A DNA stretch of 11,593 bases from Calditrichaceae bacterium (GTDB lineage Bacteria > Calditrichota > Calditrichia > Calditrichales > JBFXGD01), in contig JBFXGD010000114.1 of the NCBI GenBank assembly GCA_050178385.1, positions 1 through 11,593 of the forward strand, read 5' to 3'. The notes under the pieces were generated by a model. It was not told where the DNA came from and did not search any database. It was given only the letters and a program-made list of their open reading frames with translations. Position numbers and translations under genes: made by a program. Below are positions 4,218 to 11,593 of this stretch, one piece after another (the first letter of the stretch is position 1; each line of letters opens with the position of its first letter).

Positions 4218-5207
4218 CTATGCGCGGCTGATTAAATAGATAGTATATACCACATAAATCACCAAAAACAGAACCGCTTCCCAGCGGTCAAGCGTACGTT
4301 TTTTACCGGTAAACATGGTGAAGAAGAGCAGAAAGGAAGCCGTGATTAAGACCATTAAGTCCAGATTCATCGCGGAGTTGAATGGCAACGGACGAATGAG
4401 AGCGGAGATAGCAAGAATAAAAAAGATATTGAAGATATTTGAGCCAAGAATATTTCCCATGGCAATATCAGACTGCCCCTTATAAGCAGCAACGGCAGAA
4501 GTAAAGAGCTCCGGAAGCGAAGTTCCTATCGCGACGATTGTCAGGCCGATAATCCGGTCACTCACATTAAAATACCTAGCTATGTCAATAGAATTATTCA
4601 CAACAAATTGTCCGCCAAAAAACAAACCCGACAGGCCAAGCAAAATATAAATAACAGTTTTGGCGGTATTCATTTCAATGAATTTTTCCGTATCATCGGT
4701 TTCGACCTTCGAGATTGCAAAAGTGTATATCAAAAAAACAATAAAAAAGAAAAGCAGTACGATCCCTTCACTTCTTGAAAGAATATTCTCCGAGTGATCA
4801 AAAATAATATCATTGCACAGGAATATTAAGACTAAGGAGCCGAGAAGAGCAAAGGGTATTTCACGCCAGACCGTATTCCGGTGTGTTGAAATCGGATTGA
4901 TTAAGCCCGCAATGCCCAATATTAACAAAATGTTTACAATATTACTTCCGATTATATTTCCAAAGCTCAGATCCGCGTTTCCCTTAAGGGAGGCGATGAT
5001 ATTCACCACTAGTTCGGGAGAAGATGTGCCGAAAGCAACAATGGTCAGGCCGATAACCATTGGTGAAATAGAAAAACGAACCGCGAGCGACGCAGAACCT
5101 TCAACAAGAAGATCAGCGCCTTTGATTAAAAGTAAAAAGCCAAACAGCAATAAGGCAAAATTTAAATATAACGGCATATTATTCTTTCTATGTTCTAATA
5201 TTACCAT
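4218..5207 (-). CDS. yrbG: Calcium/sodium antiporter (CaCA/NCX family, YrbG-like)
   Basis: Two inverted-topology repeats with alpha-1 GLTIVAFGTSSPEL...GNIIGSNI and alpha-2 GLTIVAIGTSLPEL...GNILGSNI, about 10 TM segments. The true start may be ATG 5177 (MPLYLNF). Confidence 0.93.
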   Translation of the reverse strand: MVILEHRKNNMPLYLNFALLLFGFLLLIKGADLLVEGSASLAVRFSISPMVIGLTIVAFGTSSPELVVNIIASLKGNADLSFGNIIGSNIVNILLILGIAGLINPISTHRNTVWREIPFALLGSLVLIFLCNDIIFDHSENILSRSEGIVLLFFFIVFLIYTFAISKVETDDTEKFIEMNTAKTVIYILLGLSGLFFGGQFVVNNSIDIARYFNVSDRIIGLTIVAIGTSLPELFTSAVAAYKGQSDIAMGNILGSNIFNIFFILAISALIRPLPFNSAMNLDLMVLITASFLLFFTMFTGKKRTLDRWEAVLFLVIYVVYTIYLISRA

Positions 5208-5267
5208 TTGTCTTTATCGTGAAATTTTCTAAACGCACCACGAAGAACATGAATCTTTCTGACAAAA

Positions 5268-6155
5268 TCATTCCGTCTTTTTTCCGCTTTGATGAGTTAC
5301 CGGAGCATCATTATTGGTAATTGTGACCGGAAAAGGTTTTGTTTCCGAACCGGTATATAATGATATATGTGGGAAAGGAATTTCAATACCTTCTTCATCA
5401 AAACCATTCTTAATTTCTTCAAGAATGCTGTTTTTTAACTTAAGATAATCCGCTTTTACAGCCCACACGGCAAAGAGAAAATCAATGGATGAATCCCCAA
5501 AGCCGGAAAAGATGATCAAAGGTTCAGGTTCCTGTAAGCAAAGCGGATTCTTGTCTGCGATATTTAGTAGAACGGATTTTACTTTTTTGACATCCTCTTT
5601 ATAAGCAACCCCAATATTTACATCCAGCCGACGAATAGGAAAGCGGGTAACGTTGGTCACCTCACTTTTTATAATAGTTTCATTTGGAATTCGAATAAAT
5701 TTGTTGTCAAAGGTTCTGAGTTTGATGGATAATACATCAATGGAGAGCACTTGTCCGGTGGTGCCGCCCACAGTTATGACATCATCAACCATAAACGGTT
5801 TTTCGGCGATCAGAAAAAGGCCGCTGATGATATTTGAGACGGAAGTCTGAGACGCGAATCCAAGCGCGATTCCAACAATTCCGGCGGCGCCAAGGAGATG
5901 AGATAATTTAAACCCGAAATCATTTAAAATGGAAAAAATAATTATCACGACACCTGAATACATAACCAGCTTGCCAAAAATCATTCCCTGCTGTGCGCTC
6001 AGTTTTTTAGTAAAATATTTTTTTATGCTTTTACTTAGCATAAAAGTCAGTGGAAGGCCTATAAATATCAGCGCCAGAAACCTGATAATGGCAGCTGTTT
6101 TTTCTTCTGTAAAAAAATGGCTAAAGTCCAAACCGAGTGAATGTAAAAAGTCCAT
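5268..6155 (-). CDS. mscS: Small-conductance mechanosensitive channel, MscS family (paralog 1)
   Basis: 295 aa, 3 TM. Pore helix GAAGIVGIALGFASQTSVSNIISGLFL, beta domain KPFMVDDVI...G.V...IRIPN, C-terminal GIEIPFPH. SD GAGG at 6161-6164. Confidence 0.93.
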   Translation of the reverse strand: MDFLHSLGLDFSHFFTEEKTAAIIRFLALIFIGLPLTFMLSKSIKKYFTKKLSAQQGMIFGKLVMYSGVVIIIFSILNDFGFKLSHLLGAAGIVGIALGFASQTSVSNIISGLFLIAEKPFMVDDVITVGGTTGQVLSIDVLSIKLRTFDNKFIRIPNETIIKSEVTNVTRFPIRRLDVNIGVAYKEDVKKVKSVLLNIADKNPLCLQEPEPLIIFSGFGDSSIDFLFAVWAVKADYLKLKNSILEEIKNGFDEEGIEIPFPHISLYTGSETKPFPVTITNNDAPVTHQSGKKTE

Positions 6156-6166
6156 ATCAGCCTCGT

Positions 6167-6967
6167 TTAATTTGTGAAAATTCCCATACCGGGAAGATCC
6201 TTCAATGTTGAAAATGTTTTGATCGAAAGACCCTTTTTAGATGGAACCCGTGCGGTATTAATGAGTTTTGCTGATTTTGCGTCAACCGGCGGTCCTTGCG
6301 GGAAATCGATCTGGCTACTGTCCTGTTCACCTTTATATAATATACTTGTATCCCCGGCCCAGAGCTGTTCCTTATCCTGATACAAAGACAAATTTGTAAC
6401 CCGGAGCGCTAATTTTTCCACCAGTAAATCCTGATCAGACTTATTAGACAAAAATATCGGGCAAATGGCCATGTACGGGCGGTCCGGGCCGAGTTCAATC
6501 TGACGCCGCACTCCTGATGAAACCCAGTAGCATAATTCACCTTCAAGAAAGCTTCCAAACCATGTATTTGATAATATGATTGTTGGTATATCAAGCAGCG
6601 GATAGGCGTGCCTTCCGGCGATACCAAGCTGAATCCAGACAGGAATATGGACATAAATCTGAGCCTGACTGTTTTTAACTATCCGGAAGGGAGAGTCAGG
6701 TTTTATAATCACAGGCCGGTCAGGCATCTGAGGTTTTAACTGCAGTTTAGTTATTTCCTTTTTGACCGCCCAGCGGGACCAGGCAATTTTTTCGTGGCTG
6801 ATTTTCTTACTGATAATGTTGTCTTTCCGACTATGAAAATATTCATAGTTTGCCAGCAGTTCATTCTTGGAATACATGAATGAAATTTTAAGATTGCCTA
6901 TGATGTGTTCTTTTGGCTCAGTTGAAATAGTTTCGTAATCTTTCCATGTAAATATTGCTTTACTCAT
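6167..6967 (-). CDS. DUF432-like soluble protein
   Basis: 266 aa, no TM. Segment PDRPVIIKP.SPFRI...IYVHIPVW...DIP..ILSNTWFG...GELCY resembles DUF432 proteins as I recall them. It ends 11 nt before MscS paralog 1. SD AGGA at 6974-6977. Confidence 0.65.
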   Translation of the reverse strand: MSKAIFTWKDYETISTEPKEHIIGNLKISFMYSKNELLANYEYFHSRKDNIISKKISHEKIAWSRWAVKKEITKLQLKPQMPDRPVIIKPDSPFRIVKNSQAQIYVHIPVWIQLGIAGRHAYPLLDIPTIILSNTWFGSFLEGELCYWVSSGVRRQIELGPDRPYMAICPIFLSNKSDQDLLVEKLALRVTNLSLYQDKEQLWAGDTSILYKGEQDSSQIDFPQGPPVDAKSAKLINTARVPSKKGLSIKTFSTLKDLPGMGIFTN

Positions 6968-7088
6968 CGGCTATCCTATCAGCTTATTCAGGAAACAAAA
7001 TGATCGGTAATTTAGTAATAAAGTGAATACAGTACTAAGAATAATCAGTAAAAAGATTAAGAACAATTAAATATCAATTTCCCGAATC

Positions 7089-7967
7089 TCACCGAAGCTC
7101 TTTAACCGGAAGTGGTTCAGCGCTGCGGAGATGTAAATCTCTTTGCGGAAAAGGTATTTCGATCGAGTTTTCCCGGAATTTGCGGACGATGGCGCAATTA
7201 ATATCAGAACGGATTATATGGTGTCTTTTAGTGTCAAGTATCCAGACACGGAGCAGCATATTCCATGATGAATCACCAAAACTGGAAAGCAGGACATCAG
7301 GTTTGGGATTTTTCAAGACATCCTGATGACCGGCAGCGACCTCTTCCAGACATTTAAGCACTAAATCCAGATCAGAGCCGTATGAAACTCCGACTTCAAG
7401 CACAACTCTGATCTTTGGATCCCCATGCGTCCAGTTTATGACGTTTGAAGACACAAATTCAGAATTTGGTACGATAATAGTGATATTGTTAAGCGAACGA
7501 ATAGTCGTTGACCGGAAATTAATGGCGATAACATCACCCTCCGTATCACCAACCGTCACACGGTCTCCGATTTTGATCGGTTGCTCAAACAACAAAATAA
7601 GTCCCGCCACAAAATTGGATGTCACATTTTGAAGCCCGAAACCGATACCAACGGAAAGCAATCCAAAAATAACGGCCAGGCCCGCAAGATTGATTCCGAC
7701 AAATTGAAACGCGACAATGGTACCGATCACCATCACCGTATAATGGGTAATCCTGAGCATCATAAATCTTGTGTTTGTCTCAAGCTGGAGCCTCGTAAAG
7801 ACTCTTTGCAGCAACATACGGTTTATTACTCTGGACAGGATGAAAAACATAAACATCATTAAAATGAACATCAATATTGAAAACATTGTGACCGGAGTCT
7901 GATTCAACTCAAAGAGGGTGACGTTTAGAATTTTGGAAATAACTTGTGAAATTGCCTGAAGATCCAT
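7089..7967 (-). CDS. mscS: Small-conductance mechanosensitive channel, MscS family (paralog 2, MscK/KefA-core-like)
   Basis: 292 aa. GLLSVGIGFGLQNVTSNFVAGLILLFEQPIKIGDRV, IIVPNSEFV..NVINWT, VGVSYGSD, FGDSS and IEIPFPQRDLH, all typical of the MscK-like core but without the large periplasmic domain. Confidence 0.93.
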   Translation of the reverse strand: MDLQAISQVISKILNVTLFELNQTPVTMFSILMFILMMFMFFILSRVINRMLLQRVFTRLQLETNTRFMMLRITHYTVMVIGTIVAFQFVGINLAGLAVIFGLLSVGIGFGLQNVTSNFVAGLILLFEQPIKIGDRVTVGDTEGDVIAINFRSTTIRSLNNITIIVPNSEFVSSNVINWTHGDPKIRVVLEVGVSYGSDLDLVLKCLEEVAAGHQDVLKNPKPDVLLSSFGDSSWNMLLRVWILDTKRHHIIRSDINCAIVRKFRENSIEIPFPQRDLHLRSAEPLPVKELR

Positions 7968-8036
7968 TATTTATCCCACAGAAAATTTAAAGAAAAGTTG
8001 TTATTTATAATCACAGATCTCTGTGTAAAATTCCAT

Positions 8037-8996
8037 TTAGTTCTTGCCGTTGATAAAAGACATCTCATCTGCTGTGATCAGCTTATGATTTAGAAACTCA
8101 GTAATGACAATTTCAGTCATTTCACTGGCAAACGCAAACTCATACCGTATGTCATTTACATAAGCCTTGAGACGCATTTTTAATAATGACCGTCCTTCAT
8201 GTATTTCATTTTTGATAATTATGGCAATCGGTTTATTCAGATAAATATATTTGGATACCGCGGCGGCGCGGAAAGCAATTTTTTTGGCACGGATTAGATC
8301 GATGTTGGGCGGCAGATAAAATTCGGCGACGACCTGACAATTGGATTCTCCCGAGTTTGAATTTGAAACGGATTGATTGACGATTTCACTGTTTGGAATA
8401 GATACAAGGGAATCGTCGGCCGTAACAATTCGCACTGTTCGCAGACCGATTTGAACTACTTCGCCGTAGTATGATCCAACTTCTATCTTGTCACCGGCCT
8501 GAAACGGGCGGTCGAACAGGATCATTATACCGCCAAAAATATTTTTAAGGATATCCTGAGAAGCGAAACCGACCGCTATGCCGGCCGATGCCGTAACGGC
8601 GATCAGGGTTTCTATTGGCGGCGCTATAATTCCCGCGATAATGATATAAAGTATAAATGTCCATCCGGCAATTCGTAATATTGGAACGAGCCCTTTGATA
8701 GTAAGCCTCAGATTGCTGAACCGTTCCGCGAGAGCTTCAAGAAGACGGGTCAGATATTTAATTACAATAAACGCGATAAGAAAAATCAGAAAAGACCATA
8801 TTATTTTCCCAAAAGATATGGACCAGGGGATTTTTGGTCCGGAACTACTGATTTTTTCCTTGATATTGTTTGTTACCGAGATAGAATCCGCCTGCACCAA
8901 GGTATCTTTCACCGCCTGACCGTAGGAAGGCTGGCAGTCAAATATCCCGATTATGATGGCCAGAATGAAAATGGCAGATAAAAATGATCTGTTCAT
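8037..8996 (-). CDS. Atypical MscS-family channel (paralog 3) with a signal-peptide-like N-terminus and no C-terminal IPFP strand
   Basis: 319 aa. AGIAVGFASQDILKNIFGGIMILFDRPFQAGDKIEVG..YGEV..IGLRT...VSIPNS is an MscS core. The N-terminal MNRSFLSAIFILAIIIGIFDCQPSYG|Q looks like a cleavable signal. Confidence 0.88.
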   Translation of the reverse strand: MNRSFLSAIFILAIIIGIFDCQPSYGQAVKDTLVQADSISVTNNIKEKISSSGPKIPWSISFGKIIWSFLIFLIAFIVIKYLTRLLEALAERFSNLRLTIKGLVPILRIAGWTFILYIIIAGIIAPPIETLIAVTASAGIAVGFASQDILKNIFGGIMILFDRPFQAGDKIEVGSYYGEVVQIGLRTVRIVTADDSLVSIPNSEIVNQSVSNSNSGESNCQVVAEFYLPPNIDLIRAKKIAFRAAAVSKYIYLNKPIAIIIKNEIHEGRSLLKMRLKAYVNDIRYEFAFASEMTEIVITEFLNHKLITADEMSFINGKN

Positions 8997-9002
8997 ATTA
9001 AA

Positions 9003-9008
9003 TCCTTA
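9003..9008 (-). promoter_or_regulatory. Shine-Dalgarno site of MscS paralog 3 overlapping the NTPase stop codon
   Basis: The minus strand reads TAAGGA-TTTAAT-ATG, where TAA (9006-9008) is the stop of the upstream NTPase gene. Confidence 0.7.
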
Positions 9009-11593
9009 TTGGATAATATTCTTTGCTTTTAAAATTCTCATCAGCGGGCGATACAAAAATGGATGTATCTGATAACCGCGTTCTTTCTTTATAATCAGAC
9101 CCAGGTTTTCCATCCGCGTAAGTTGCATAAAACTTTGCTGACTGTTCTGATGAAAAATAAGTGCATGAATATTGGGGGAGAGCGTTTCATGCTGGAAGAT
9201 TGCCCCCAGAGTAAAAAGATCTTCGGCCGGAAATCCGTATAGAAATGAAAAATCCATGTCAATATCGGCGGCAAGTATGATTTTATCTGACAATATTTCT
9301 TTAATGGAGCCTAACCAGTAAAGCATGGCAACCGTAACATTTCCGGATGACAGATCATTTAATTGATTAAAAAACAGTGTTTTTAAAAAGTTCTGCCGGT
9401 CTTTATCGGATGTAAGTTTTTTAAATTTCCGGTTGGATCGTATGCTTTCGTTATCTTCGAATTCAAGATTATATCCACTCACGCGGTGACGTTTTAAAAT
9501 GATTGACTGCAGTTCGGCCATTGGAAGAGGACCGAGGAATATCTCTTTATTAAAGAATCTTGAAATATTGATGACCTTATCCAGATAGTTCCAGCTATAA
9601 AGAGTGCAGGAGACAAGCCAGAAAATTTTACCGTATGTACGTGAAACGATCAGGAGAAAACGTTCAATGCTTTCAAATCCGTCCACCACCCGAACGAATA
9701 AGTTCTGTATATTTTCTACAACGCAAACATGTTTTTCTTTACCCTGCAGAATCCATTCTTCGAACTCGTCCAGGCTGTTAATGTCATCGGTTTTAAATGC
9801 CTTTTTGAGAAGAAGAAGTAAATCGTTATTTGTATAGGATTTTTCTAAGATGTCAAGCGTAATCATGTTGTGATTCAGAAAATATTTTTTCTCGGCGAAT
9901 TTTATCAGAGTCGTTCTGCCGCTGCCTCTTTCACCGATCAGAACCGTCGATGCGTATTGATCGTTTTGCCAGTCTGTGAATTCATATTCAATCATAGACA
10001 TTTCTGCATTGCGACCTGCATAAAAACGTTCATCCTCAAGCGGTTCAAACCTGAAAAGCCTCTGATAGACATAGGGCAGTTTAGCCACCTGTTTTTGCGT
10101 GTCGGAAAGAAAAACACTTAGTTGATCTTCGATAACTGTTTCAGGTTTAACGAGTCCGGTTATTTTTCTAAATCTGGAATATCCACCCCAGATCTTCTTG
10201 AAGTTGGTCGTGACAAAAACAAAAATATGTGGAAGAATCGATTTTACAAAAGTGATTGTTTTGTGCCGGTATTCCCTGATTCTCTCTTCAGTTTTAGCTC
10301 TTGCGAATCGTATTTTCAATTCAATTATTTTTTCGTTATCAGCAAGATTTTGTATTTCTTGTTCAAATTCGAGTGAACGTTCAAAAAGCTGTAAATTGCA
10401 CTCTTCAGCGATACTGACACTTTGAGAAAGCAGATCATTAAAAAGTTTTTCGGCTCTTTCAAATCCCCCAAGTACCACTTTTTGAGCCTCGTTAAAATTC
10501 GAGCCGGAGTCATCCTGATTAATGAGATTTAAACCGGCTTCAAGATTAAATTCGACGACCTGATCAATTTCTGAGATGGTTCGGGAAATGCTCTCCAGGT
10601 TTTCTCTTATTGTACTGATAAATTTTTTATATTTTCCCGAGAACTGAGACAGAATTTCTGTGTCAACAAGCTCTTTCAGGGGGATATCGTCTATTTTTGA
10701 TTTTGGCGGTGTGTTTTCATCATCACGATGAACAAAAATGACGTGTTCTTCGGAAAGAATTCCCCGCGCCTTATCAAATTCGGATGAGTAGTTCTCCAGA
10801 ATTTGAATAATCTGTGTCTGAACGATCATATCCAGTACATGCGGCAATTTTACATATCTTAGCTCTTTAATAAGATCGCGGTTTTCTGTGGTTATGGCCT
10901 GTTTCAATGCTTTGGCGGATTTTGGGGCGCGTAATTTTTCCGCGGATTTTGAAAGCAGATCAATCACATCCTTAATGGATGGCTGCATCTTTTTTTCAAT
11001 CTGGTCATAGAGCCGGCGAATCGTACTCTTGTAAATCTGGCTTAGTTTTAACTGCAGAATAGAAAGTTCCAGACTGTTCTGCCAGTCTTCACGTATTCCC
11101 TTAAAATGTAAATCCCATGCTTCCCTGATTTTCTTAAAGCTCTTTTCGAGAAAGGCCCACTGTTTATTAAAGCCGTTTTTCTCGTAGGTTTTTACAGGAT
11201 GAAGAAATGTGCCGGCCAGCTCCCAGTTGCTGTGAAAGCGGGTTAACACATTTTCAAAATTTTGGTTGAACCGGTTTTGAACATCGGATTTAAGTATGTC
11301 CGAATTTATTGCGGAAACGTGTATTTCATCAAGAAGCTCATCAAAAATCGCTGCCGGAACCCGGAGTTCTTTCTTCTCTTCTTCAGTGTATGATTTTAAT
11401 TTTTCAAGAGTGATTCCTTTTTCCTTTAGTCCTTCAACTCCTGATTGAAGCCCGGCAAACTGTAAAGATACGGATTTAAGAAAAAGCTGCCACTCTTGTA
11501 GAATATATTCCACCACCGGGCGTACAATATGATCGGTGTGAAAATCATAAAGAACGAATTTTCTGGTCTGAACCGGGAGTTCTGTTTGGGGTT
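9006..11593 (-). CDS. Large helical protein with a C-terminal STAND/AAA_16-like P-loop NTPase and winged-helix domain, 5'-truncated by the window
   Basis: FYAGRNAE pre-P-loop motif, Walker A GERGSGRTT (9909-9935), Walker B-like VCVVEN (9711-9728), LGPLPMAEL, SSGNV (GxP-equivalent), and a WH-like end LTRMENLGLI...YQIHPFL. The frame stays open upstream of the track's GTG 11516 to the window edge (PQTELPVQTRKFVLYDFHTDHIVRP-VVEYIL), so the protein exceeds ~860 aa. Confidence 0.8.
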   Translation of the reverse strand, partial: PQTELPVQTRKFVLYDFHTDHIVRPVVEYILQEWQLFLKSVSLQFAGLQSGVEGLKEKGITLEKLKSYTEEEKKELRVPAAIFDELLDEIHVSAINSDILKSDVQNRFNQNFENVLTRFHSNWELAGTFLHPVKTYEKNGFNKQWAFLEKSFKKIREAWDLHFKGIREDWQNSLELSILQLKLSQIYKSTIRRLYDQIEKKMQPSIKDVIDLLSKSAEKLRAPKSAKALKQAITTENRDLIKELRYVKLPHVLDMIVQTQIIQILENYSSEFDKARGILSEEHVIFVHRDDENTPPKSKIDDIPLKELVDTEILSQFSGKYKKFISTIRENLESISRTISEIDQVVEFNLEAGLNLINQDDSGSNFNEAQKVVLGGFERAEKLFNDLLSQSVSIAEECNLQLFERSLEFEQEIQNLADNEKIIELKIRFARAKTEERIREYRHKTITFVKSILPHIFVFVTTNFKKIWGGYSRFRKITGLVKPETVIEDQLSVFLSDTQKQVAKLPYVYQRLFRFEPLEDERFYAGRNAEMSMIEYEFTDWQNDQYASTVLIGERGSGRTTLIKFAEKKYFLNHNMITLDILEKSYTNNDLLLLLKKAFKTDDINSLDEFEEWILQGKEKHVCVVENIQNLFVRVVDGFESIERFLLIVSRTYGKIFWLVSCTLYSWNYLDKVINISRFFNKEIFLGPLPMAELQSIILKRHRVSGYNLEFEDNESIRSNRKFKKLTSDKDRQNFLKTLFFNQLNDLSSGNVTVAMLYWLGSIKEILSDKIILAADIDMDFSFLYGFPAEDLFTLGAIFQHETLSPNIHALIFHQNSQQSFMQLTRMENLGLIIKKERGYQIHPFLYRPLMRILKAKNIIQ

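Follow-up and report, generated by a model that had tools for sequence, protein, structure and literature searches.

Several membrane pores are governed by nucleotide-binding regulators on their cytoplasmic side, among them KtrAB/TrkAH with their RCK rings, KATP, composed of Kir6 and SUR, and bCNG, in which an MscS is fused to a cyclic-nucleotide domain. We know of no channel for which an AAA+ protein of the initiator clade has been reported as the regulator. Within the MscS family, E. coli MscS deleted for residues 266-286, the barrel, is reported to expose its alpha-beta domain, to bind the GTPase FtsZ near the bottom of the cage, and to be altered in inactivation and blocked in recovery from it (PMC4440785).

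Here we describe a pair of genes in a window of 11,593 nucleotides, the whole stretch of DNA analyzed, in which an ATPase gene is followed directly by a third MscS paralog, Msc3. No published description of this pair was found in the literature. The pair points to a release valve made of two proteins and under control from the cytoplasm, and we put at roughly 60% the probability that the ATPase and Msc3 are two subunits of one machine, a channel with a cytoplasmic nucleotide-switch regulator.

Layout of the locus

The ATPase gene, Msc3 and MscS paralogs 1 (5268-6155) and 2 (7089-7967) all lie on the minus strand of the window. The pair itself is arranged as follows:

9006..11593, minus strand: ATPase gene, 3' part, residues ~161-1021 of ~1021, from the list of open reading frames
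8997..9008, minus strand: junction, consisting of the stop TAA and a 9-nt spacer, the stop overlapping an SD-like AAGGA
8037..8996, minus strand: Msc3 gene, an MscS-family channel of 319 aa, with its stop at 8037-8039

An earlier, sequence-only reading had placed the pair at 8037-10040, a span that takes in no more than the final third of the ATPase. The ATPase ORF reaches 11591 and leaves the contig at its 5' end; its first ~160 codons sit on a second contig (G000:C151), as judged from the contig overlap and the N-terminal piece, and the full-length protein is taken as ~1021 aa from 79 homologs of about 1020 aa. The junction sequence bears out the 9-nt gap and the TAAGGA spanning stop and spacer: on the minus strand, the ATPase stop TAA at 9006-9008 gives way to the spacer GGATTTAAT (8997-9005), directly followed by the Msc3 start ATG (8996-8994). 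A stop abutting a GGAG-type site recurs in relatives from SD-using phyla (TAAGGGAG, TAGGGAG, TAGGAG and TAAGGGGAG), and in Bacteroidota and Ignavibacteria relatives the two genes share 1 or 4 nt or are separated by 4-6 nt. With starts set by the longest ORF, the gap is -4 to +12 nt in 64 of 75 loci. Recurring as it does in relatives, the stop-in-SD layout is no chance feature of the window. No terminator-like site separates the ATPase gene from Msc3, and the pair of sigma-70-like matches near the junction is no more than expected by chance.

Architecture and nucleotide site of the ATPase

The structure of the ATPase was read from an AlphaFold model (pLDDT 86) of the L003 protein, which is 94% identical, together with column counts in 50 relatives. 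The following features were assigned:

10095..11593, minus strand: helical N-terminal region, residues ~161-659 of 1-659, with long helices and coiled-coil bundles
9009..10094, minus strand: ORC/Cdc6-like AAA+ core, lid and winged helix, residues 660-1021, from structure matches
9909..9935, minus strand: deviant Walker A GERGSGRTT, residues 713-721, from column counts
9711..9731, minus strand: Walker B strand ending E-N, residues 781-787, from column counts
9675..9692, minus strand: loop and helix start after Walker B, residues 794-799, predicted Msc3 contact
9009..9023, minus strand: C-terminal tail, residues 1017-1021, KNIIQ here, predicted Msc3 contact

As modeled, the ATPase joins a long helical N-terminus to a deviant AAA+ module of the ORC/Cdc6-like type. 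Helices in the N-terminal region are up to 84 residues long (DSSP of the L003 model), no consistent hydrophobic segment was found there, and a structure search with residues 342-572 returned designed helical bundles as its sole matches. This region is poorly conserved, with a mean column top-frequency of 0.33 against 0.52 for the C-terminal module. The best Foldseek match of that module is A. pernix ORC2 (1w5t, E 3.8e-08), VIA-align superposes model residues 663-941 on Drosophila Cdc6 (7jgr_G) with Z 16.7 and rmsd 3.3 over 247 aligned residues, and Pfam reports weak AAA_22 and AAA matches.

At Walker A position 719, the place of the canonical lysine, the 50 relatives have K in 17, R in 12 and another residue in 21, with R in the window; position 715 is K in 36 and R in 10, such that 715 and/or 719 is basic in 49/50. 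In Walker B, E786 is present in 49/50 and N787 in 39, with D in 9, and the usual D-E is absent. With a deviant P-loop and an E-N Walker B, ATP binding and hydrolysis are putative, as are the label "NTPase" and any regulation by nucleotide. The winged helix may bind DNA instead.

Two-way synteny and related ATPase-MscS systems

That the ATPase and Msc3 form a dedicated pair had been proposed from the window, and synteny upholds this in both directions. From the ATPase side, we took the best 80 of 244 genome stretches encoding ATPase relatives and counted an Msc3 ortholog where the next gene downstream on that strand matched at phmmer E<1e-60. An intact ortholog was present in 75 of these best 80 loci; of the rest, L055 carries a partial Msc3 at a contig end, both genes are fragmented in L067, and in L016, L049 and L073 the contig stops within 190 nt of the ATPase stop, making them uninformative. 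In the converse direction, all 31 Msc3-like loci (E<=1e-40) of the phylum sample and all eight of the class sample around G086 lie directly behind an ATPase match, and in total the ATPase is directly upstream at 39/39 informative loci (237 genomes). It is likewise upstream at 70/70 informative loci among 80 metagenome loci fetched by Msc3 (69 by HMM and L105 by eye from the last 46 ATPase residues), the other 10 having <300 nt of upstream sequence. The Msc3 clade is sharply bounded: in four genomes the ortholog scores E 1e-141 to 1e-151 and other MscS paralogs E>=1e-23. The pair is encoded in many bacterial phyla and its distribution is patchy (29/86 genomes in the phylum sample, 8/151 in the class sample), suggesting an accessory device rather than a core function.

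Other ATPases of this kind are also accompanied by MscS-like genes. The same genome encodes a 1713-aa CCC(SLC12)-fused ATPase paralog (G000:C39) followed by an MscS-like gene of ~250 aa, as are 15 of 16 relatives of that paralog, and ATPase variants of 975, 1005, 1017 and ~1508 aa are followed by an MscS-like gene too. The association is kept across at least four ATPase architectures, and the sister ATPases fused to ion transporters include both CCC and Na+/H+ exchanger types.

Recurrent neighbors of the pair are other MscS genes (34/75 loci), histidine kinases, CN-hydrolase and CorA, and none of 20 neighbor-cluster representatives scanned against Pfam is a defense-type protein. Neither the ATPase nor Msc3 matches a PADLOC model at E<=0.1. 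Both results tell against a conflict (abortive-infection) module, in which a STAND-like sensor ATPase would detect an invader and open the channel, depolarizing the cell. Such a module would suit the STAND/ORC-like fold of the ATPase, which has Avs, NLR and BrxC chains among its structural matches (Z 12-14), as well as the patchy spread across phyla and the pairing of a fast-evolving, sensor-like ATPase (mean p-distance 0.73) with a conserved partner (0.47). Homeostasis, however, agrees better with the fusions to CCC and Na+/H+ transporters, and we consider a conflict role very unlikely.

Msc3 and the loss of the cage-closing strand

The model of Msc3 (pLDDT 85) has MscS and MscK as its best structural matches, and defines three regions:

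8511..8813, minus strand: three transmembrane helices, residues 62-162 (DSSP), with a Q-D hinge in the pore helix TM3
8079..8354, minus strand: alpha-beta cage domain, residues 215-306, beta-alpha-beta-beta-alpha by DSSP, predicted docking surface
8040..8078, minus strand: C-terminal tail, residues 307-319, short and unconserved, replacing the IPFP strand and barrel strand

By DSSP the transmembrane helices span residues 62-92, 94-123 and 128-162. Q147, D148, K151, N152 and G156 are invariant in 56 aligned orthologs (39-90% identity to the window Msc3), and the hinge aligned as Q-D in Msc3 is Q-E in MscK and Q-G in MscS. Paralogs 1 and 2 match all three MscS domains in Pfam, whereas Msc3 matches PF00924 (beta-domain, E 6.1e-22) alone. 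The alpha-beta domain, in which the strings AVSKYIYLNKPI and RLKAYVNDIRYE noted earlier are present, has a mean top-frequency of 0.73, compared with 0.67 for the transmembrane region and 0.48 for the tail, and the C-terminus reads ITEFLNHKLITADEMSFINGKN.

The sequence-only reading held that paralogs 1 and 2 end with IEIPFP(H/Q) and that Msc3 lacks this strand. The motifs IEIPFPH and IEIPFPQ are indeed present but not terminal, with 29 and 16 residues beyond them. In Msc3 the IEIPFP motif, a predicted strand and conservation are all absent, but 13 residues remain after the last helix. An hhalign comparison with paralog 2 stops at Msc3 residue 306 (paralog-2 residue 269), just before EIPFP. The tail (pLDDT 63) has no predicted strand by DSSP of the model; in a low-confidence structural alignment it follows the E. 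coli MscS chain as far as residue 275, so a partial strand is possible in the assembled channel. Across 73 orthologs the tail is most often 7 residues long (38/73), with a range of 3-25.

The expected link between IPFP loss and an adjacent ATPase was also found. All 75 Msc3 orthologs lack an [IV]P[FY]P motif and break off right behind the last alpha-beta helix. The MscS-like proteins paired with five other ATPase subfamilies, those of the CCC-fused and variant ATPases included, end at the same point and likewise have no IPFP-type strand. The terminal strand is lost in all ATPase-partnered MscS subfamilies examined. Nearby MscS proteins without an ATPase keep an IPFP- or FAYP-type motif (paralogs 1 and 2, C135 and the flanking MscS of L026 and L027). 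Two MscS genes of the same genome, C45 and C129, have neither a strict P[FY]P motif nor an ATPase neighbor, indicating that motif loss alone is not diagnostic.

The conservation of the channel bears on whether Msc3 is mainly a membrane anchor or tension sensor for an ATPase whose output lies elsewhere, for example in DNA or cell-envelope processes. The winged helix and ORC/Cdc6 likeness of the ATPase, its long helical arm with no assigned role, and the non-channel role proposed for the MscS cage-FtsZ contact (PMC4440785) would fit this. Yet few parts of Msc3 are as conserved as the pore helix and its gate-region residues, which argues for selection on conduction, and the fusions of sister ATPases to ion transporters point to ion homeostasis; we regard an anchoring role as quite improbable.

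Co-divergence and predicted complex

The ATPase and Msc3 co-diverge (Mantel r 0.845 over 67 pairs, reached by 0/999 permutations). An interaction between them had been proposed for structure prediction, and a model of a single ATPase chain (residues 428-1021) with a single Msc3 chain (residues 125-319) supports a contact with the cage domain, with ipSAE 0.70 in all three runs and 0.00 for the best of three controls. The runs have at least 62% of contacts in common and a partner pLDDT of at least 75; in the calibration of the method this mark is reached by 116/157 solved complexes and 2/215 mismatched pairs, counts that hold only roughly here because custom alignments were used.

The predicted contact joins the helical face of the Msc3 alpha-beta domain (residues 218-219, 240-254, 281-282 and 295-300) to the core and C-terminal tail of the ATPase. 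Docking on a remodeled cage, as earlier suggested, is to this extent reproduced, although the cage bottom is not demonstrably the site. ATPase interface residues are family-specific, with a mean top-frequency of 0.71 against 0.52 for the module. In the loop at 794-799, R794 is R in 41 and K in 9 of 50 relatives, V796 is V in 41 and I in 6, and G798 and F799 are found in 50/50 and 48/50; the tail consensus is KNILH, with N1018 invariant (50/50). The alignments also reveal an apparent charge swap at one interface position. Where Msc3-243 is E (36 pairs), ATPase-795 is K or R in 35/36; where it is R (26 pairs), ATPase-795 is K/R in 0/26 and ATPase-797 is D/E in 20/26. This covariation is mostly one clade split, with three smaller events within the other clade (L020, L023 and L011).

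These data weigh against an ATPase linked to the channel by no more than a common operon and acting as a transcriptional or other indirect regulator. The C-terminal winged helix would agree with such a role, but the complex model passes while its controls do not, the modeled interface comprises the family's most conserved residues and includes the charge swap, the two proteins co-diverge, and their association survives at least four ATPase architectures, and we find the absence of any contact extremely improbable.

A transient contact could also reflect an assembly or remodeling factor that builds the barrel-less heptamer or rescues inactivated channels. The AAA+ fold, the modeled contact with the cage domain, a first and translationally coupled ATPase gene, suited to a need during channel synthesis, and the failure of barrel-deleted E. 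coli MscS to recover from inactivation (PMC4440785) are in line with this. The E-N Walker B and variable P-loop lysine speak against a working motor, and the structural matches fall in the initiator and STAND-like switch clades rather than among unfoldases. In addition, the Q-D hinge of Msc3 is nearer the Q-E of MscK, which is not known to inactivate, than the Q-G of MscS. On balance we judge an assembly factor unlikely.

Discussion

We favor a channel with a cytoplasmic nucleotide-switch regulator. Msc3 would be an MscS-type inner-membrane channel with a signal peptide, three transmembrane helices, an MscK-like pore helix and a cytoplasmic cage, whose alpha-beta domain, freed of the terminal strand and barrel segment, would offer a conserved docking surface. 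The ATPase, probably soluble and ~1021 aa long, with a long helical arm preceding its ORC/Cdc6-like AAA+ core, lid and winged helix, would be made in step with the channel through translational coupling. It may contact each cage domain twice, through the core face just after Walker B and after strand beta-4 and through its invariant C-terminal tail. Given its deviant P-loop and E-N Walker B, the ATPase looks more like a slow nucleotide switch than a motor, and the nucleotide state, along with whatever the helical arm senses, might leave the channel open, shut or reset. Solute release would then be under cytoplasmic control, besides or in place of membrane tension. Synteny in both directions, co-divergence, the folds of both proteins and the missing terminal strand are observed; the physical contact and its location are predicted by modeling, and nucleotide control, gating effect, stoichiometry and physiological signal are inferred.

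Compared with E. coli MscS, MscK and MscM, Msc3 has the same fold from TM1 to the alpha-beta domain (PF00924), aligning by VIA-align with MscS (6vyk_A; Z 15.8, rmsd 9.2) and MscK (7uw5_A; Z 15.0, rmsd 7.2) over 252 residues each. MscK is its best solved relative by sequence (E 7.5e-23) and has in common with it a Q-acidic hinge in the pore helix. Unlike the E. coli proteins, Msc3 has no PF21082 or PF21088 match and no IPFP-type strand or barrel segment, its alpha-beta domain is as conserved as its membrane part, and it has an obligate ATPase gene partner; it also lacks the large N-terminal domain of MscK and MscM. Barrel-less MscS resembles Msc3 as proposed here in combining an exposed alpha-beta domain with a nucleotide-binding partner, but there the truncation was engineered and the contact, of low affinity, is with a GTPase of cell division (PMC4440785), whereas Msc3 is truncated naturally, throughout its clade, and has a co-inherited AAA+ partner dedicated to it.

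In ORC/Cdc6 initiators and STAND NTPases (such as Apaf-1, Avs and NLRs), AAA+ core, lid and winged helix succeed one another as they do in the ATPase, which differs in its deviant Walker A and B, its helical N-terminus of 640 residues and its membrane-channel partner; no sign of a DNA or replication role was found in this analysis. KtrAB/TrkAH, KATP and bCNG follow the same logic of a membrane pore with a cytoplasmic nucleotide-binding regulator, although no RCK, ABC or cNMP domains were found in the pair. The CCC(SLC12)-AAA+ fusion has a homologous helical-arm and ORC-like module (profile positions ~428-1019) and an MscS-like partner that, as in Msc3, ends after the last cage helix. There the module lies behind a cation-chloride cotransporter and the partner is ~250 aa, whereas the ATPase described here is unfused, has an N-terminal region of its own (~430 residues) and is partnered by a full-size, highly conserved MscS clade.

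Gene content and the ATPase-Msc3 junction

The window belongs to a draft genome of 3.9 Mb that is 94% complete, and its closest public locus lies in a Calditrichaceae MAG (L003; 94% protein identity). The genes considered here are all carried on the minus strand, with the gene for the large ATPase directly upstream of the third MscS paralog, Msc3:

9006-11591, minus strand: ATPase, a large P-loop protein (ORF, continues past the contig end)
8037-8996, minus strand: Msc3 (MscS paralog 3), 319 aa
7089-7967, minus strand: MscS paralog 2 (ORF and Pfam)
6167-6967, minus strand: DUF432 protein (ORF and Pfam)
5268-6155, minus strand: MscS paralog 1 (ORF and Pfam)
4218-5207, minus strand: Na/Ca exchanger (ORF and Pfam)

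The first ~160 codons of the ATPase gene are found on another contig of the same draft genome, and its relatives are ~1021 aa in length, the frame in which residues are numbered here. The assembly break falls within this gene, where window positions 11372-11593 and G000:C151:1-222 overlap by 222 nt at 97% identity; this imperfect match of contig ends suggests strain heterogeneity in the sample.

The tight junction described in the sequence-only reading is present as claimed: the ATPase stop codon TAA occupies 9006-9008 and is followed by a 9-nt spacer, GGATTTAAT, and the Msc3 ATG at 8996. In relatives that use Shine-Dalgarno sites the ATPase stop likewise adjoins a GGAG-type site, and in Bacteroidota and Ignavibacteria the two genes either share 1 or 4 nt or are separated by 4-6 nt. 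Across 75 loci carrying both genes, the gap is between -4 and +12 nt in 64. A promoter and terminator scan of positions 5000-11593 found no terminator-like site between the two genes, and its promoter and terminator counts were no higher than the shuffled-sequence level.

Two further features of this region were observed. An inverted repeat with 6-bp arms and a 2-nt spacer (CACAGA TC TCTGTG) is located at 8012-8025, 12 nt 3' of the Msc3 stop within the 69-nt gap separating Msc3 from paralog 2; it was not called by the terminator scan. The DUF432-like gene (6167-6967) ends 11 nt upstream of paralog 1, and this arrangement recurs: a DUF432-like protein occurs in 18 of 86 genomes of the phylum, a paralog-1 type MscS occurs in the same 18, and in 18/18 the DUF432-like gene immediately precedes its MscS neighbor in the same orientation, as also seen at L003, L004, L017, L022, and L043. 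Paralog 1, the fixed partner of the DUF432-like gene, retains the canonical IEIPFP end.

Conservation of the gene pair

Relatives of the ATPase were located in 244 genome stretches among 185,579 species-representative genomes (one per species), and the best 80 of the 244 were fetched. These loci carry MAG labels that include Calditrichia, KSB1, Ignavibacteria, Bacteroidales, Cytophagales, Nitrospirota, Gemmatimonadetes, Aminicenantes, Latescibacterota, and Neomarinimicrobiota, among others, together with three cultured Bacteroidota (Fulvivirga sediminis, Acidiluteibacter ferrifornacis, and Catalinimonas sp.). In 75 of these best 80 loci, an Msc3 ortholog (phmmer E<1e-60) immediately follows the ATPase gene in the same orientation. 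The remaining five consist of one with a partial Msc3 at the contig end (L055), one with both genes fragmented (L067), and three in which the contig ends <190 nt past the ATPase stop (L016, L049, and L073).

The association is equally strict when approached from the channel. Msc3-like matches (E<=1e-40) are present in 29 of 86 genomes of the phylum at 31 loci, and each of the 31 comes immediately after an ATPase match; a class sample of 151 genomes around one from Ignavibacteriaceae contains eight with an Msc3-like match, and 8/8 show the same arrangement. Among 80 metagenome loci fetched by similarity to Msc3, an upstream ATPase was detected by HMM in 69 and a seventieth (L105) retains the last 46 ATPase residues at the contig start, which accounts for 70 of the 70 informative loci, the other ten having <300 nt of upstream sequence.

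This channel is also sharply separated from other MscS proteins. In four genomes the Msc3 ortholog was matched at E-values of 1e-141 to 1e-151, with every other MscS paralog at 1e-23 or weaker, and in a collection of 1.84 billion proteins the Msc3 clade comprises 348 representatives (50%-identity clusters) at E<=1e-30 versus 52,986 MscS-like representatives at E<=1e-3. The two partners have diverged together (Mantel r 0.845 over 67 pairs, a value reached by 0 of 999 permutations), with mean p-distances of 0.47 (channel) and 0.73 (ATPase). The proposal of the sequence-only reading that the two form a dedicated pair is thus borne out from both sides, and the ATPase and Msc3 genes very probably constitute a dedicated functional pair.

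A conflict (defense) module would be an alternative, low-probability account of such a pair. Against it, neither the ATPase nor Msc3 matches any PADLOC-DB 2.0 family at E<=0.1, the recurrent neighbors are MscS genes (34/75 loci), histidine kinases (15), CN-hydrolase (13), CorA (8), and the like, and 0 of the 20 recurrent-neighbor cluster representatives scanned are defense-type proteins. The DUF432 protein similarly has no PADLOC-DB 2.0 family at E<=0.1.

The MscS-family genes found within 4.5 kb of the pair in those 34 loci are often directly adjacent and of variable orientation, and examples include L026, L027, L034, L052, L056, L011, L015, L065, L069, and L074. In Ignavibacteria and Aminicenantes the neighbor is a divergent form of ~300 aa, and in the window it is paralog 2 (7089-7967). 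Msc3-like long forms of 570-820 aa were also found (P0146, P0155, P0162, P0170, P0179, and P0294-P0298), with 280-460 additional N-terminal residues that have no Pfam match.

Msc3, an MscS-family protein without a predicted cage-closing strand

Pfam searches detect three MscS domains in each of paralogs 1 and 2 and the Beta-domain alone in Msc3 (PF00924, residues 148-214, E 6.1e-22, 77.9 bits against a cut-off of 20.2). The C-terminal alpha-beta domain PF21082 is matched by paralogs 1 and 2 at 3.4e-18 and 6.5e-16 and has no match in Msc3 at E<=0.01; its fold is nevertheless still present in both the AlphaFold model and a profile alignment to paralog 2. The Msc3 model (pLDDT 85) contains a signal-peptide helix, TM helices at 62-92, 94-123, and 128-162, and the beta-domain, followed by an alpha-beta domain with strands at 220-228, 258-266, and 269-280 and helices at 234-246 and 283-303, and then a short tail modeled at low confidence. 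Its top matches by both structure and sequence are MscK and MscS (Foldseek E 4e-15 to 5e-15), and VIA-align places the model on MscS with Z 15.8 and rmsd 9.2 over 252 aligned residues. Msc3 orthologs are 39-90% identical to the window copy, most being 50-68% identical across phyla. The pore helix bears an invariant Q147-D148 hinge, a site that reads Q-E in MscK and Q-G in MscS in sequence alignments.

The C-terminus of Msc3 departs from that of its neighbors. It was claimed that paralogs 1 and 2 end on an IEIPFP strand and that Msc3 does not; the motifs IEIPFPH and IEIPFPQ are indeed there in paralogs 1 and 2, but they do not form the protein ends, which lie 29 and 16 residues further. Msc3 itself ends in ITEFLNHKLITADEMSFINGKN, in agreement with the claim. 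Its profile alignment with paralog 2 stops at Msc3 residue 306, corresponding to paralog-2 residue 269, directly before EIPFP. An [IV]P[FY]P motif is found in 0 of 75 Msc3 orthologs, and no strand is predicted after residue 303 in the Msc3 model. The stretch beyond the last helix, measured in 73 orthologs, ranges from 3 to 25 residues with a mode of 7 (38/73), which for the family overall is too short to make up a final sheet strand as well as a barrel strand. This tail shows the lowest conservation in the protein (mean top-frequency, the frequency of the commonest residue in an alignment column, of 0.48, compared to 0.73 for the alpha-beta domain and 0.67 for the membrane part). The 13-residue tail of the window copy overlays E. 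coli MscS up to residue 275 in VIA-align, so this copy may form a partial terminal strand in the assembled channel.

The ATPase is an ORC/Cdc6-like protein with atypical nucleotide-binding motifs

In source databases the ATPase is named only "ATP-binding protein," "AAA family ATPase," or "hypothetical." Pfam signals are marginal: in the window protein AAA_22 scores 23.3 bits, below its cut-off of 27, and AAA scores 21.6, just above its cut-off of 21.2, and in relatives AAA_22 and AAA_16 matches fall near or under the cut-offs. The model of the L003 ortholog (pLDDT 86) begins with long helices that span ~640 residues and include one of 84 residues; an AAA+ core, lid, and winged helix come next. 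Foldseek and VIA-align group residues 663-1021 with ORC/Cdc6 proteins; the top Foldseek matches are ORC2 and Cdc6, the best VIA-align match is Drosophila Cdc6 (Z 16.7, rmsd 3.3, 247 aligned residues), and the next structural matches are TnsC, BrxC, and STAND proteins. The helical N-terminus is less readily placed, as an ESM Atlas search with residues 1-640 returned no usable match, residues 342-572 match only designed helical bundles, and whole-model searches are dominated by AAA+ matches. No consistent hydrophobic segment was found in the ATPase, which is therefore taken to be cytoplasmic.

The Walker A motif reads G-E-[KR]-G-S-G-x-T-[TS] rather than the canonical GxxxxGK[ST], and the window protein has R at the lysine position. 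Of 50 relatives, 17 have K at the canonical lysine position (719), 12 have R there, and 21 have some other residue; 46 carry K or R at position 715, and 49 are basic at 715, 719, or both. Walker B is hhhhE-N rather than hhhhDE (E in 49/50, N in 39, and D in 9), and R861 in the lid helix is invariant and may represent sensor 2. Based on these motifs, we read the protein as a putative nucleotide-binding switch with little hydrolysis. An RCK- or cNMP-regulated channel of the KtrAB/Trk or bCNG type was considered and rejected, as no RCK, cNMP, or ABC transporter Pfam module was found in either protein, nor RCK or cNMP modules in the relatives.

Related ATPase-MscS systems and transporter fusions

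The profile search also matched proteins of ~1700 aa. One of these, from contig C39 of the same draft genome (L083:132-6025, minus strand), is 1713 aa long and consists of an AA_permease/SLC12-type cotransporter fused to a region homologous to ATPase residues ~428-1019. It is followed by a 252-aa MscS-like gene that overlaps its stop by 4 nt. A small MscS gene is likewise present in 15 of 16 further loci of the phylum with ATPase regions fused to a cation-chloride cotransporter (CCC), being split in L094 and cut by the contig end in L103, with none found in L099. The protein collection contains 64 such CCC-fused proteins. ATPase variants of 975, 1005, 1017, and ~1508 aa were also identified, each with an MscS-like gene immediately after it.

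All six inspected partner channels end directly after the last cage helix, and flanking MscS genes without an ATPase (those at L026 and L027, paralogs 1 and 2, and one on contig C135) retain a FAYP- or IPFP-type motif or a longer tail. Loss of the terminal strand thus accompanies partnership with the ATPase across several subfamilies. The expected co-variation of IPFP loss with an ATPase gene therefore holds for every ATPase partner inspected, but the converse is not strict: MscS proteins on C45 and C129 of the same genome also lack P[FY]P and have no ATPase neighbor, and we reject absence of this motif alone as a marker of the partnership.

Several unusual architectures were encountered in these searches. 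The ~1508-aa variants (L184:1238-6824 and L185:494-5926) have ~490 additional N-terminal residues with no Pfam match and precede Msc3-like genes of 357 or 260 aa. P0079 (1406 aa, from a Bdellovibrionales MAG) combines a Na+/H+ exchanger domain (PF00999) with a C-terminal region that is weakly ATPase-like (E 5.8e-6). P0199 (1418 aa) contains an Msc3-like channel at 359-599 followed by an ATPase-like region at 1039-1399, the order opposite to that of the gene pair. It could be a real fusion or a gene-calling or sequencing artifact, and as a single cluster member on a single 8.5-kb contig it was rejected as natural-fusion (Rosetta stone) evidence. No second channel-ATPase fusion was found, the other long proteins with the P0199 channel part being ~800-aa forms without the ATPase.

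A predicted contact between the ATPase and the Msc3 cage

The complex was predicted from one ATPase chain (428-1021), chosen because this portion is common to the transporter-fused relatives, and one Msc3 chain (125-319), both with alignments. The ipSAE was 0.70 in 3/3 runs and 0.00 in the best of three controls; at least 62% of contacts were common to runs and partner pLDDT was at least 75. In calibration, 116 of 157 solved complexes and 2 of 215 mismatched pairs scored this well, counts that apply only roughly here because user-made alignments were supplied. No similar solved complex is known to us, and memorization by the predictor is therefore an unlikely source of the score.

The predicted interface involves ATPase residues 794-799, 829, 832-833, 953, 957, 972-974, and 1017-1021 and Msc3 residues 218-219, 240-254, 281-282, and 295-300. 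The residues involved are conserved in a family-specific manner; on the ATPase side their mean top-frequency is 0.71 versus 0.52 for the module, with N1018 present in 50/50 and F799 in 48/50. Charges across the interface also change together: where Msc3 residue 243 is E (36 pairs), ATPase residue 795 is K or R in 35, and where it is R (26 pairs), residue 795 is basic in none and residue 797 is D or E in 20. This swap is largely one clade split; the three members of the R clade that have lost R243 (L020, L023, and L011) have lost D797 as well, and L020 has gained R795.

In the model, the ATPase contributes the first turns of the helix that follows Walker B, together with the helix that follows strand beta-4, a face that we take to be the arginine-finger side directed toward the neighboring protomer in AAA+ proteins; channel binding and ATPase self-association could thus compete. 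In MscS, the alpha-beta domain turns both of its helices toward the cage exterior, and the modeled site would therefore be free in the heptamer. We consider a physical regulatory complex of the ATPase and Msc3 to be the best account of the pair, at a probability of about 0.6. Its rivals are a remodeling factor, a membrane anchor for another function, the conflict module considered above, and indirect regulation.

Proposed mechanism and significance

If the regulatory complex is formed, the barrel-free cage domains of Msc3 would grip the ATPase through its core and C-terminal tail, and the nucleotide state of the ATPase, together with a cue sensed by its long helical arm, would determine how readily the channel closes, opens, or turns refractory. 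One study (PMC4440785) describes E. coli MscS lacking residues 266-286 as able to open but not to recover from inactivation, and describes its alpha-beta domain as exposed and then binding FtsZ near the cage bottom. These barrel-deletion data provide a precedent for the proposed mechanism, with the barrel-less cage as a docking site, the role that the sequence-only reading had suggested for the remodeled cage.

CCC and Na+/H+ transporters occur as fusions with the same ATPase module, which points to ion or volume homeostasis. A more elaborate extension, which we regard as rather unlikely in full, is that seven ORC/STAND-like ATPases dock as a ring outside the barrel-less cage, with the heptameric channel as their template, and that a cytoplasmic cue sensed by the arms would drive ATP binding and release and so open or lock the valve; with its sister systems this would make up a cell-volume and ion "osmostat."

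Searches of the literature, covering mostly non-subscription journals, found neither an MscS-ATPase pair nor a prokaryotic CCC-AAA+ fusion described. Both parts belong to known superfamilies, and it is their combination, with the barrel-less cage as a predicted docking site, that appears to be new. Should the complex prove real, it would offer a tractable system for coupling of cage movement to the pore, with cultured carriers at hand, and would assign a role to a large AAA+ family that has no name, tie that family to ion and volume homeostasis through its transporter-fused relatives, and indicate that membrane transport has co-opted switches of the ORC/Cdc6 type. The ring of seven, if true, would be the first AAA+-gated ion channel.

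MscS channels are the textbook case of gating by membrane tension alone. An MscS clade that is without the cage-closing strand and is inherited only with a large predicted ATP-binding partner suggests a second, cytoplasmic gating input. The proposed bacterial "osmostat," comprising the ATPase-Msc3 pair and its CCC- and Na+/H+-fused sisters, would be analogous in purpose to the WNK-CCC circuit of eukaryotes.
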